A stretch of DNA of 19,129 nucleotides from a virus, in UHGV virus genome UHGV-0124847; one strand, 5' to 3'. This document shows positions 9,247 through 15,627 of the stretch, piece after piece. Below the pieces are notes generated by a model that saw nothing but the letters and a program-made list of their open reading frames with translations, was not told the DNA's origin and did no database searches. A program made the translations under genes and the position numbers. Every line of letters begins with the position of its first letter. The stretch's first letter is position 1.

Positions 9247-9333
9247 AGAATACTGTAGGTATTTTATTGTGTAAATACCCAAGGTATTTATTTTTGGTGA
9301 AATAATGATAAGCAAATGAATACAAAGGATATT
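9247..9333 (-). promoter_or_regulatory. pL promoter with OL operator sites
   Basis: Minus strand: -35 TTTACA (plus coords 9270..9275), 17-bp spacer, -10 TATTCT (9247..9252). Operator-like dyads AATAC-N5-GTATT at 9249..9263 and 9274..9288, and a degenerate one at 9319..9333. Confidence 0.55.
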
Positions 9334-9419: not shown

Positions 9420-9809
9420 TTAGTCAGCGAAGGTTAAGACGAGAATTACCTTAATGATGTCTGCTACAACAGACACGGCCATAGATAAACCAAAGACGAT
9501 CCAAGCCATAGAGATGTCTTCACTACCATCGTATAGAGTTCCGTAATCACTGGTGTAAGGCGTAAATGTCGCGCCTTGATACAACAGGTATAAGCTTGAA
9601 CCATAGAGGATAAATGCAGATATCCCTTGTATTGCTATGATCACTAGAATCATGAAACGAGCTGATCTATGCGCCCAAGCCTGGCTTATTTTTTCTGATA
9701 GAGATTTCGCAATAAAAGCATGCGCTAAGCCGTAAATTGTCGAGATTGCCAACATCCCAAAAAAGCTTGCTATAGCGGTTCCAACCATAATCGCCCCTTG
9801 CGTGATCAA
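9420..9809 (-). CDS. Small integral membrane protein (129 aa, three predicted TM helices) co-transcribed with cI
   Basis: ORF start overlaps the cI stop (ATGA-type overlap). Three long hydrophobic segments. Occupies the position of rexA/rexB in lambda; no similarity to RexB in my reading. Confidence 0.65.
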   Translation of the reverse strand: MITQGAIMVGTAIASFFGMLAISTIYGLAHAFIAKSLSEKISQAWAHRSARFMILVIIAIQGISAFILYGSSLYLLYQGATFTPYTSDYGTLYDGSEDISMAWIVFGLSMAVSVVADIIKVILVLTFAD

Positions 9810-10522
9810 ACCAGCCTTAGTTTTGTCTCAATTGCAACGCCTATAATCTTGCAGTTTCCATTGATTGGCACGAGAGGCCATGCAGGATTAAGTCCCTTGA
9901 GGTATTTATTTCCGCCGTCGATTATCAGCTTCTTGAATGTTGCTTCGTTAGAGTCAGAAAGTTTTGCTATGACCAAGCTGCCGTTGATCGCCTCCCTTCC
10001 GGTATCGAAAAGAACGAATGTTCCCTCTGGAATGCTTAACCCAACCGGTGCCGTCATTGAATCACCTTCCACTTTAAGCCAAAACGCATTACCTTGAATA
10101 TGCGCGTCAGACTCAAGCCAAACATCTATGTCTTTAATGGTGTATGGTTCGCATGCTTCACACCACGAGCCAGCCTGGATACTGCTTAACACCGGATACC
10201 TCTTTCCTGCTCTGTATTCCCCTGCATACCTTACGTTGGCATCGCTCTTAAGGCTTTCTGCCTGTTCTGCAACCTTGGCAGCAATTGACTGGCTAAAATC
10301 AGCAATTGAGACTTGCAACAATCGTGCAAAACCAGATGCAACCTCAACGTTTAGCGCGTTTCTGCCATTAAGATAATGCCCTACCGCTCCTTGGGTGATA
10401 CCCAGTTCATCAGCGATTGAGTATTGGGTTATTCCCAATTCTTTCTTTTTTGACTCATACAAAGCCTTAAGCCGCTTAGCGTCTTCGAGCTGTTCTGTCG
10501 TCAGTGATTTTTTATTTTCCAT
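9806..10522 (-). CDS. cI: CI-type prophage repressor (HTH plus LexA-like S24 autocleavage domain)
   Basis: 238-aa ORF. N-terminal HTH (LGITQYSIADELGITQGAVGHYLNG) follows the lambda CI pattern; C-terminal S24 peptidase motifs (GDSM...FKKL). Divergent from cro across the operator region. Confidence 0.9.
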   Translation of the reverse strand: MENKKSLTTEQLEDAKRLKALYESKKKELGITQYSIADELGITQGAVGHYLNGRNALNVEVASGFARLLQVSIADFSQSIAAKVAEQAESLKSDANVRYAGEYRAGKRYPVLSSIQAGSWCEACEPYTIKDIDVWLESDAHIQGNAFWLKVEGDSMTAPVGLSIPEGTFVLFDTGREAINGSLVIAKLSDSNEATFKKLIIDGGNKYLKGLNPAWPLVPINGNCKIIGVAIETKLRLV

Positions 10523-10528
10523 AGCTTA

Positions 10529-10599
10529 ATTCTAATAGCTAAGGTACTTAAACTAAAAATACCCTGAGTATTGATTGTTTTGAATACCTGTAGTATTCT
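10529..10599. promoter_or_regulatory. OR operator region with divergent pRM and pR promoters
   Basis: Three 15-bp dyads AATAC-N5-GTATT at 10534..10548, 10558..10572 and 10583..10597 (24-25 bp centre spacing). pR: -35 TTGATT 10571..10576 and -10 TATTCT 10594..10599. pRM on minus: -10 TAGAAT (10529..10534) ending 6 nt before the cI ATG, which implies a leaderless cI mRNA. Confidence 0.6.
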
Positions 10600-10628
10600 T
10601 TATTCATGGTTAATAACGGAGAGTGCAT

Positions 10629-10823
10629 ATGATTCGAATGACACTTGCCGATTACGCCAAAATCCATGGACAGGCTAAAGCAGCCAGTGACTTTGGTGTA
10701 ATCCAGTGCGCTATCAGCAAGGCCATTCTGGCAGGCCGTAACATCATGGTTACGGTAAAGCCTGATGGCAGTGTGATTGGAGAGGAAGTTCGTCCTTTCC
10801 CAAGCAACAAGAAAAACAAATAG
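10629..10823 (+). CDS. cro: Cro repressor
   Basis: The protein parallels lambda Cro throughout ([29 protein letters not shown]...PDGSV..EEV.PFPSNKK). Start placed at the ATG 7 nt after GGAGAG; the track ORF begins two codons earlier at GTG. Confidence 0.85.
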
Positions 10824-10931: not shown

Positions 10932-11210
10932 ATGCAACTTACAAGTACTCGCAAGAAAGCGAATGCAATTACAAGCAACATCATGAATCGAATTGCTGTA
11001 CGTGGTCAGCGAAAGGTTGCCGACGCGTTAGGGATTAATGAATCGCAAATTTCGCGATGGAAAGACAGCTTTATCCCAAAGATGGCCATGCTTCTGGCTG
11101 TTCTTGAATGGGGTGTTGAAGACGAGGAGTTGGCGGAACTGGCTAAGAAAGTAGCCAGAATGCTGACAAAAGAAAAAGCCCCGAAGAACGGCGAATTCTT
11201 CGAGGCCTGA
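10932..11210 (+). CDS. cII: CII transcriptional activator
   Basis: 92-aa ORF matching lambda CII across the HTH and tetramerisation region (KSQISRWK...IPK.SMLLAVLEWGV). Confidence 0.9.
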   Translation: MQLTSTRKKANAITSNIMNRIAVRGQRKVADALGINESQISRWKDSFIPKMAMLLAVLEWGVEDEELAELAKKVARMLTKEKAPKNGEFFEA

Positions 11211-11244
11211 TGTAGAAAGACTGGATCAATCCACAGGAGTAATT

Positions 11245-11406
11245 ATGACAAAACGTCGTAAGAAATACCAGGAAAAAGAAGAGATTCGACACCCTGATTC
11301 ACCTGAGGGATTAGTGGTAGCCGCAGCAAATAACAGGGCGTTCGCAGAGCGCCTTGTTGGTGTTTACAGACTAGCCAAAGCAGGAGTGAAACATGGGCGT
11401 CGTTAA
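11245..11406 (+). CDS. Hypothetical small basic protein (53 aa, [53 protein letters not shown])
   Basis: Hand-translated. AGGAG Shine-Dalgarno 5 nt upstream; its 3' end overlaps the start of the O-like gene. Confidence 0.4.
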   Translation: MTKRRKKYQEKEEIRHPDSPEGLVVAAANNRAFAERLVGVYRLAKAGVKHGRR

Positions 11407-12214
11407 GTTAGCTGATTACAGGCCTCAACTGGAGGTCGTGGAGCATCGCGTGGCAGATACCGAAGATGGTTTCATGCGCGTTGCTAACGAGATTACCGAC
11501 GGTCTGCTGATGGCTGATTTAACCGTCCGGCAGTTGAAGGTGATGCTCGCTATCATGCGCAAGACATACGGATTCAATAAGCCGATGGATCGACTCACAA
11601 ACACGCAGATAGCAGCCATGACAGGTATTCATCACACTCATGTTTGCGCTGCCAAGCGCCAGCTTATTGAGCGTAAATTCCTCATTGCTGATGGCGTGAA
11701 AATCGGAGTGAACAAGGTGGTTTCGCAGTGGATTAGCCAGGACAGCTTAACATTAGCTAAAACAGCTAATAAAACATTAGCCAAGTCGGCTAATGGGTAT
11801 AAGCCAAGTCAGCTAAACACAAAAGACAATATACAAAAGACAATAAATACAAATACCCCCTTACCCCCTAACGGGGGTGGCGATGGGCAGGTTAAACCTG
11901 AACGTCGCAAGGCGGAACGAATCGACTACGAATCCTTCCTGAACGCCTACAACACCGAAGTCGGTGACAGACTGCCACACGCTGTTGCGGTCAACGAGAA
12001 ACGCAAACGCCGCCTGAAGAAAATCATCCCGCAACTGAAAACGCCAAACGTGGACGGTTTCAGAGCGTATGTCAGGGCGTTTGTGCATCAGGCCAAGCCG
12101 TTTTACTTCGGAGACAACGACACGGGCTGGACGGCTGATTTTGATTACCTGCTGAGAGAAGACTCGTTAACGGGAGTTCGGGAAGGGAAGTTTGCAGACA
12201 GGGGGATTGCATGA
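11393..12214 (+). CDS. O: Replication initiator (phage O-like, replisome-organizer N-terminal domain)
   Basis: 273-aa ORF. N-terminal region ([55 protein letters not shown]) is typical of phage replication protein O N-terminal DNA-binding domains. The coding sequence contains an iteron array. Confidence 0.85.
11733..11880. other. Putative replication origin inside the initiator gene: dyad iterons, A-rich tract, GC palindrome
   Basis: Repeated about 17-bp dyads: TTAGCT-aaaac-AGCTAA (11753..11769), TTAGCC-aagtc-GGCTAA (11777..11793), taAGCC-aagtc-AGCTAA (11800..11816) at 23-24 bp spacing. Then an A-rich stretch (11817..11860) and CCCCCttaccccctaacGGGGG. Confidence 0.6.
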
Positions 12215-15283: not shown

Positions 15284-15627
15284 CAATGGATTATTCACAG
15301 TTAAGTGATTTTGAAATTAACAGAATGGTAGGAGACATAATTTTTAAAGGACTTTGGGCATGTAAACCGGAAACGTCAGGGAATAACACCAACAAATGGT
15401 ATTACGGAAATGCTGATACAACTTTTGAGCCATTAAATCATTTGCCTGACTACTGCAATGATCCGAGCGCTTCATGGCCGATTATTGAGAAATACAGGAT
15501 TTCTATCTTAGACCAGTTAACTGAATGGTGTGTGGATGCAAAAGGCGTAAGCCCAATATTTGATACCAGACCTCTCCGCGCCGCCATGATTGTCTTTCTC
15601 CTGATGCAGGAGGCCAATAATGCTTAG
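15280..15627 (+). CDS. Hypothetical nin-region protein (115 aa from MTMDYSQ)
   Basis: ORF with ATGA overlap to the ninE stop. The track ORF extends upstream to a GTG at 15244, but that start lies inside ninE. Confidence 0.55.

Follow-up and report, generated by a model that had tools for sequence, protein, structure and literature searches.

Among the closest described relatives of the locus analysed here are the replication origins of the lambdoid phages lambda and P22. The lambda origin (ori-lambda) lies within the initiator gene O and is activated by transcription from PR (PMC5043065; PMC7466680). O dimers bind inverted-repeat iterons and open an adjacent A+T region of 40 bp (PMC5043065). 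The lambda RefSeq record annotates ori iterons 1 to 4 within gene O at positions 39034, 39054, 39078, and 39101, with spacings of 20, 24, and 23 bp. These four iterons are dyads of about 18 bp and are located where the segments encoding the N-terminal and C-terminal domains of the O-type initiator meet. Gene 18 of P22 contains four repeats of about 20 bp that are unlike those of lambda, and the proteins of the O family bind different iterons within their own genes (PMC8022706). In the P22 record (BK000583), a rep_origin feature is placed at 32840–32984 in gene 18, which is the equivalent place, and is annotated only as "similar to phage lambda." Genetic exchange between P22 and phage L has shown that the replication region is exchangeable as a whole but that its single genes are not (PMC8022706), which supports co-specificity of the origin, the initiator, and the helicase.

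Iteron origins of plasmids (pSC101, P1, F, RK2, R6K) likewise consist of replicon-specific initiator sites beside an A+T-rich opening region, and their iterons are direct repeats that are bound by initiator monomers and are located outside the rep gene (PMC5043065). Unlike these plasmid iterons, the repeats described below are inverted, would be expected to bind dimers as in lambda, and are embedded in coding sequence. A further related system is the Eru2A–Eru2B replication unit of Stx phages, which consists of proteins of 273 and 458 amino acids, the lengths also found here (Llarena et al., 2021; PMC8044961). In Stx phages, replication drives toxin production (PMC7466680).

The sequence under analysis (19,129 bp of virus genome UHGV-0124847; hereafter, the window) corresponds to the early region of a prophage or phage of the lambdoid type (Table 1). 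The window is a mosaic over its full length, and any single phage record covers at most 56% of it. The region with the OR-type operators is the zone of the rightward early promoter, from which the transcript reads through cro, cII, and the O-like gene. A scan of the window against Rfam matched no family.

Table 1. Coordinates of the candidate origin, of the genes around it, and of other elements in the window.
Feature	Position	Strand or direction	Basis or remark
Second group of AATAC-N5-GTATT operators	9249–9333 (starts 9249, 9274, 9319)		Repeat search
cI-like repressor	9806–10522	Minus	Peptidase_S24 and HTH_3 (Pfam)
OR-type operators, AATAC-N5-GTATT, three copies between cI and cro	10534–10597 (starts 10534, 10558, 10583)		Repeat search
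cro	10623–10823	Rightward	Pfam Cro
cII	10932–11210	Rightward gene order	
ORF of 53 aa between cII and the initiator gene	11245–11406	Rightward	
O-like replication initiator gene, 273 aa	11393–12214	+	Pfam Phage_rep_O, PHROG 345
Predicted helix-turn-helix of the winged-helix DNA-binding domain, aa 70–93	11600–11671	+	AlphaFold2; recognition-helix motif TGIHHTHVC
Iteron 1, TTAGCCAGGACAGCTTA	11733–11749		Right half-site degenerate; codon phase 1
Iteron 2, TTAGCTAAAACAGCTAA	11753–11769		Perfect dyad; codon phase 0
Iteron 3, TTAGCCAAGTCGGCTAA	11777–11793		Perfect dyad; codon phase 0
Iteron 4, TAAGCCAAGTCAGCTAA	11800–11816		Left half-site degenerate; codon phase 2
A-rich, A+T-rich tract, 39 nt, presumed unwinding element	11817–11855		Composition; directly after iteron 4
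Initiator linker and C-terminal domain, presumed helicase-recruiting module, P22 gp18 type	11819–12211	+	Identity to P22 gp18
C5-TTA-C5-TAAC-G5 element, right border of the origin	11856–11878		Sequence
DnaB-like replicative helicase gene, 458 aa	12211–13587	+	Pfam DnaB_C, E = 7.7e-79; DnaB N-terminal domain, E = 4.5e-13

The initiator matches Pfam family Phage_rep_O at residues 19–113 (E = 1.2e-32), the family to which lambda O also belongs, and PHROG 345, "replication initiation O-like" (E = 2.8e-104). It is homologous to HK97 gp54, P22 gp18, and Eru2A, and the product of the following gene is homologous to HK97 gp55, P22 gp12, and Eru2B. An AlphaFold2 model of the initiator, made from an alignment of 25 sequences that are all at least 71% identical, is poor overall (mean pLDDT 52, pTM 0.32). 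In its N-terminal part, three helices (residues 45–58, 70–77, and 81–93) are followed by two strands (residues 97–100 and 103–106), which is the order of a winged helix, and pLDDT there is 62–73. A Foldseek search of the PDB with this model gave weak matches (E = 0.05–0.2) that are all MarR-type winged-helix dimers, which is a hint only, and comparison of the initiator sequence with all PDB chains gave no match at E ≤ 1. The winged-helix assignment therefore leans mainly on Pfam membership and on the order of secondary-structure elements, because the model is poor and the fold matches are weak.

A repeat search identifies a single family of four 18-nt copies in the initiator gene (11732–11749, 11752–11769, 11776–11793, and 11799–11816), which is the top-ranked family of local direct repeats in the whole window. 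When at most one mismatch is allowed, the 19,129 bp contain exactly these four matches to TTAGCYNNNNNRGCTAA, where 0.14 would be expected by chance, and none of 200 shuffled sequences reached four. Iterons 2 and 3 are perfect dyads, and in each of iterons 1 and 4 one of the two half-sites is degenerate. The array begins at codon 114, immediately after the end of the Phage_rep_O match at residue 113, and when the protein is aligned with lambda O and P22 gp18, the array falls in the same segment as theirs, between the N-terminal DNA-binding domain and the C-terminal domain. The repeat search detected no further iteron-like array in the window. The first-pass annotation of this DNA had proposed three to four inverted-repeat iterons of about 17 bp (TTAGCY-N5-RGCTAA) inside the initiator gene, spaced 23–24 bp apart. 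The repeats themselves are borne out by the excess of sites over expectation, and their number is corrected to four; the proposed spacing holds for the second and third intervals (24 and 23 bp) and fails for the first (20 bp).

The start-to-start spacing of the array (20, 24, and 23 bp) is identical to that of the lambda iterons, and the P22 origin agrees with the window in both the number and the spacing of its iterons. In a three-way DNA alignment, the window, P22, and lambda are in register over all four iterons, the ACACAAAAGACA.TAT box is invariant, and an A-rich tract directly follows iteron 4. The iteron sequences differ: TTAGCC..GGCTAA in the window corresponds to TCCCTC..GAGGGA in lambda and to TTTACC..GGTAAA in P22, and no TTAGC dyad is present in P22 gene 18. 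The predicted recognition helices differ as well, with TGIHHTHVC in the window initiator against TKLPVKRC in lambda O, and the helix of P22 gp18 is again distinct. The window also departs from lambda in its right-hand palindrome (C5/G5 runs vs. a GAGAATTC-containing repeat in lambda), in the C-terminal domain of the initiator, which is unrelated to that of lambda O, and in the partner protein, which is a phage DnaB-like helicase instead of lambda P, the loader of host DnaB.

The locus thus contains, within a gene of the O family, four dyad iterons about two helical turns apart, an A+T region of about 40 bp, and an inverted repeat on the right. As judged from these sequence features, the segment 11733–11878 is very probably the theta-replication origin of a lambdoid prophage or phage, of the class that is located inside the initiator gene (ori-lambda, ori-P22). 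An architecture of the ori-lambda type, with different iteron sequences that would predict replication specificity and with an A-rich tract and a CCCCC...GGGGG palindrome that follow the iterons, had been suggested in the first-pass annotation, and the identity of spacing with lambda, the common register with lambda and P22, the P22 rep_origin feature, and the two elements to the right of iteron 4 (Table 1) all agree with that suggestion. The sole match to the DnaA-box consensus in the window, at 15291, is far from this segment and is no more than expected by chance; participation of DnaA in the function of the origin is therefore not suggested.

The four iterons are translated in three different codon phases as ISQDSL, LAKTAN, LAKSAN, and KPSQLN, so that a repeated peptide cannot explain them. 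The constraint acting on the repeats was assessed in related loci, which comprise 80 further loci on viral contigs that encode relatives of the initiator's N-terminal domain, together with six annotated phages. From these, 15 representatives with four-iteron geometry and less than 93% mutual identity were compared, in which the DNA encoding the N-terminal domain is 61–67% identical to that of the window. The mean major-allele frequency of the 48 half-site columns is 0.95, and at third codon positions among these columns it is 0.94, whereas it is 0.74 in the central N5 segments and 0.73 in the linkers between iterons. In the DNA-binding domain, the corresponding frequencies at codon positions 1, 2, and 3 are 0.86, 0.91, and 0.56. 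This conservation of the half-sites is not circular, because iteron content played no part in the selection of the loci, which relied on protein similarity and on the spacing of two anchors.

These data bear on the idea that the repeats are a by-product of a low-complexity peptide linker between the two domains (LAKTAN/LAKSAN) and have no function as DNA. The array does encode the inter-domain segment, iterons 2 and 3 give similar peptides, and the low confidence of the model at residues 108–175 (pLDDT < 50) fits a flexible linker; however, the peptides of iterons 1 and 4 are unrelated, third positions in the half-sites are far more conserved than those of the neighbouring domain, the N5 and linker columns, which encode peptide as well, are far less conserved than the half-sites, and the spacing is the same as that of lambda despite the different sequence. 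The reading as a peptide repeat is rejected on the basis of the codon phases and the third-position conservation, and we regard it as extremely improbable.

What is conserved is the sequence TTAGC-N7-GCTAA and not base pairing within it, because C·A, a non-complementary combination, predominates at the sixth pair of the dyad in all four iterons across the 15 lineages, and because single strands of iterons 1 and 4 fail to fold. As far as sequence can indicate, this is the pattern that would be expected of a protein-binding site. The dyads could instead have been selected as mRNA or ssDNA hairpins or as cruciforms, which would act as a pause site, a terminator, or a structure sensed by defence systems, and not as protein sites on dsDNA. 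As ssDNA, iterons 2 and 3 form stable hairpins (−4.6 kcal/mol, z = −4.2, and −7.6 kcal/mol, z = −7.1, respectively), the whole 150-nt region has z scores of −5.6/−6.3, and a consensus scan reports a terminator-like site on the minus strand at 11795–11775. In addition, a 2026 preprint argues that the lambda iterons adopt hairpins once the origin DNA has melted and that the OLD defence protein binds these hairpins, a proposal that would favour a role for hairpins here too. Iterons 1 and 4, however, have folding energies of only −0.4 and −0.7 kcal/mol, the same as shuffled sequences, yet their intact half-sites are equally conserved, and no compensatory changes in the dyads were seen across the 15 lineages. 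The terminator-like sites in the window number three, against 2.6 expected by chance, and an antisense terminator inside an essential gene has no evident role; the reading of iteron 3 as a terminator is rejected on this count. Selection for hairpins alone is likewise rejected, on account of the unfolded iterons 1 and 4 and the sixth pair, and is very unlikely. Hairpins could still arise after melting as a secondary consequence.

Among phage operators, too, 17-bp dyads at intervals of about two helical turns are typical, and the window does contain such arrays. The TTAGC repeats might thus be operators for the prophage repressor, Cro, or CII, or might serve autoregulation of the initiator, without being part of an origin. 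The operators of the repressor and Cro, however, are a different dyad, AATAC-N5-GTATT, at the expected places (Table 1), which excludes the TTAGC sites as immunity operators. The TTAGC dyads are found only inside the initiator gene when the whole window is searched, they track the N-terminal domain of the initiator across lineages that differ in their immunity regions and C-terminal partners, and neither the A-rich tract nor the register with ori-lambda has a counterpart in operators. An operator function in place of an origin is accordingly given almost no weight.

The N-terminal domain of the initiator aligns well across the family, and its helix-turn-helix segment sorts into classes. More than 70 loci combine the motif TGIHHTH(V/I)C with TTAGCC-N5-RGCTAA iterons in four to seven copies; they belong to phages of Escherichia, Salmonella, Klebsiella, Cronobacter, and Yersinia. 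The other classes are KHHTHCSTAK with TTAGCK-N5-TGCTAA (SEN34 and others), TGILPHKC with TTACCCGAATCAGGTAA (RCIP0034, 4A7), TGMAPTKC with the TTTACC..GGTAAA iterons of P22, and TKLPVKRC with the TCCCTC..GAGGGA iterons of lambda. Across these five classes, which are the only ones scored, iteron type co-varies with the predicted recognition helix. Like helices go with like half-sites: HHTH is found with TTAGC, and P(T/H)KC is found with TTACC. On the basis of these sequence patterns, we propose that the iterons and the recognition helix together set replication specificity, and the correspondence suggests that helix motifs may predict half-sites well enough for replicon-specificity typing of prophages from sequence alone.

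The same class of N-terminal domain and iterons is combined with various partners. A DnaB-like helicase is the partner in the window and in Yersinia phage 06.16-1, a lambda-P-like loader is the partner in phiES15, and a 362-aa form is present in RCIP0114. The occurrence of one N-terminal class on varied C-terminal domains and partners is the modular pattern to be expected if the N-terminal domain reads the iterons and the C-terminal domain contacts the helicase system.

The A-rich tract that follows iteron 4 opens with the ACACAAAAGACA box, which is also present in lambda and P22, and contains a 14-nt tandem repeat, ACAAAAGACAATAT/A. GC content falls to 0.275–0.325 in this tract and AT skew rises to +0.63/+0.66; in the 40 nt that follow the ACAAAAGA box, A+T amounts to 75% and A to 62%. 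Classical descriptions of lambdoid origins include a short inverted repeat on the right-hand side of the A+T-rich region. In the window, this position is occupied by two C5 runs (11856–11860 and 11864–11868) and one G5 run (11873–11877), in which ACCCCC (11863–11868) and GGGGGT (11873–11878) can form a stem of 6 bp with a loop of 4 nt. The predicted hairpin has an energy of −6.3 kcal/mol and a z score of −1.3, which is not significant on its own.

An arrangement of C-run, C-run, and G-run is present in 31 of 40 distinct variants of the O gene, about 35 nt past the ACAAAAGA box, and the variants that lack it have another short palindrome at the same place. Across the variants, the element is read in two codon phases and uses the rare codons CCC and GGG. 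The lengths of the runs vary jointly (4/4/4, 5/5/5, and 6/6/6), and one variant has a T within its C-run and the corresponding A within its G-run (CCTCCC..GGGAGG). When the variants are aligned, the loops are variable and the runs are almost invariant. Because short palindromes are common by chance, and given the low z score, the indication of DNA-level selection on this right-border dyad is only suggestive. That the C/G element has been selected in its own right as DNA in origins of this class, and is not just the codons of a Pro/Gly linker, is accordingly a tentative reading to which we give well under even odds. In that case, it might, for example, mark a boundary or a loading site for the helicase, or act as a structure-prone clamp that limits unwinding.

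Comparison with P22 divides the locus into two parts. DNA similarity to P22 in blastn begins at about 11809, and identity is 89–95% from there onward. The A-rich tract and the C5-TTA-C5-TAA-G5 palindrome of P22 are nearly identical to those of the window. At the protein level, identity to P22 gp18 is 38% for the N-terminal part of the initiator, taken up to where the iterons end, and 64% for the C-terminal part, and the helicase shares 87% identity with P22 gp12 over 301 amino acids. The window origin thus has the P22-type module of C-terminal domain and helicase and lacks the iterons and N-terminal domain of the P22 type. Because the P22 identities split at this point, the window can be described as a P22-type module (unwinding region, C-terminal domain, and helicase) joined to a different module (N-terminal domain and iterons). 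Since the iterons, the N-terminal part, and the recognition helix all differ from those of P22, an origin specificity that differs from that of P22 is predicted.

By analogy with lambda, a mechanism of the lambda type is most likely for the candidate origin. Initiator dimers would bind the four iterons (core TTAGC-N7-GCTAA, 11733–11816) via the N-terminal winged-helix domain, and the iteron-bound initiators would assemble a nucleoprotein complex resembling the O-some. Stress imposed by this complex on supercoiled DNA would melt the adjacent 39-nt A-rich tract, and rightward early transcription probably helps this melting. The P22-type C-terminal domain of the initiator would then bring the DnaB-like helicase that the phage encodes in the following gene to the melted tract, where it would stand in for the P–DnaB complex of lambda. 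A second, exchangeable module, which P22 has as well, would comprise the C-terminal domain and the helicase together with the A-rich tract and the C/G palindrome. From the behaviour of the related systems, we infer binding by the initiator, its dimer stoichiometry, melting, helicase loading, and dependence on transcription; for activation of the origin by the rightward early transcript, the model is lambda only.

The origin is already known both in kind and in sequence: its architecture is classical, its P22 counterpart is annotated, and its sequence is present in HK97. The O gene of the window is 98.8–99.4% identical at the DNA level to that of HK97 (gp54), mEp213, HK446, Nil2, phage 2851, and many Stx phages, and the 201 nt around the array are 99.5% identical to gene 18 of Salmonella phage ST104. 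HK97 gp54/gp55, ST104 18/12, Nil2 o/p, and "Eru2" are essentially the same sequence: identity in the O gene is 98.8–99.5%, and the palindrome, the A-rich tract, and the complete set of four iterons are present. The records of HK97, Nil2, and ST104 carry no origin annotation, and the report on the Eru2 unit describes the genes with no annotation or test of an origin (PMC8044961). Searches of the literature available to the analysis found no paper with the exact iteron strings and no experiments on an origin of the HK97 or Eru2 type. There is a small annotation gap, in that this class of iterons is unmarked in the database records examined.

The practical value of the analysis lies in annotating the origin of the HK97/ST104/"Eru2" replicon type. 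Given the iteron core TTAGC-N7-GCTAA and the recognition helix that goes with it, prophages could be grouped by replication specificity, cross-activation or titration of initiators between co-resident prophages could be predicted, and origin decoys could be designed. A catalogue of iteron classes may also help with the question of whether iteron hairpins act as defence triggers, as proposed in the 2026 preprint. An exact copy of the 161-nt origin is carried by 441 of 5,426 complete E. coli genomes (about 8%) and by many Stx-converting phages.

Among the dyad iterons within the initiator gene of the window, degeneracy is confined to one side of the two outer copies. The inner half-sites of iterons 1 and 4 are consistently degenerate in the window and in 14 other lineages (L005, L007, and L048–L079 among the compared loci, which encode relatives of the initiator N-terminal domain), reading AGCGAA/AGCTTA in the right half of iteron 1 and TAAGCC/TTCGCC in the left half of iteron 4, and the outermost half-sites of the array are kept perfectly in the same set. 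Because this pattern is conserved across lineages, the degeneracy is probably functional, for example in providing graded affinity within the initiator complex. Some relatives of the same iteron class (L006, from Cronobacter phiES15; L046, L047, and L088–L091) carry five to seven iterons rather than four. The extra copies are inserted iteron-plus-linker units that lengthen the initiator protein, in parallel with the initiator lengthening likewise reported for six-iteron lambda-type Stx phages.

Among 40 distinct variants of the O gene, 31 retain a C-run/C-run/G-run element on the 3′ side of the A-rich tract, and those without it have a different palindrome in the same position. The element occurs in two codon phases and uses the rare codons CCC and GGG; its run lengths co-vary (4/4/4, 5/5/5, or 6/6/6), and the L073 version reads CCTCCC..GGGAGG.

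A single N-domain/iteron class is joined to varied C-terminal domains (those of L006, L009, and L010 versus those of the window, L005, and L007), and the partner that follows also differs within this class: a lambda-P-like loader in some members, a DnaB-like helicase or a 362-aa form in others. The N-domain/iteron part meets the C-terminal part at the A-rich tract, so the origin also serves as a recombination joint between modules.

Upstream of the initiator, a minus-strand segment resembles an antisense RNA unit of the oop type. It agrees with the conserved lambdoid pO/oop 5′ box at 28 of 28 positions, and within the 3′ end of cII it has a T-run and a hairpin of terminator-like form. Rfam gave no family in this segment. 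The 53-aa ORF shares 14 nt with the start of the initiator gene, and many lambdoid phages keep such an ORF between oop and O; HK97 gp53 and P22 orf48 are its equivalents, whereas lambda lacks a counterpart.

A second dyad-repeat family, AATAC-N5-GTATT, is unrelated to the iterons; its two sets most probably represent the OL and OR operators of the window's immunity type.

Coordinates of features in the window and compared loci
Feature	Locus	Position	Details
AATAC-N5-GTATT dyads, left set	window	9249, 9274, 9319 (span 9249-9333)	3 copies left of repressor region
AATAC-N5-GTATT dyads, right set	window	10534, 10558, 10583 (span 10534-10597)	3 copies between cI and cro
Candidate oop-type antisense RNA unit	window	11176-11252	minus strand; pO/oop box and terminator-like hairpin
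Terminator-like hairpin	window	11208-11176	
pO/oop 5′ box	window	11220-11247	
53-aa ORF	window	11245-11406	matches PHROG 1331 (unknown function)
Iteron 1	window	11733-11749	
Iteron 4	window	11800-11816	
C-run/C-run/G-run element	window	11856-11878	
C-run/C-run/G-run element	L005	853-892	
C-run/C-run/G-run element	L006	851-890	
C-run/C-run/G-run element	L007	814-853	
C-run/C-run/G-run element	L073	2956-2995	
Iteron array	L006	702-822
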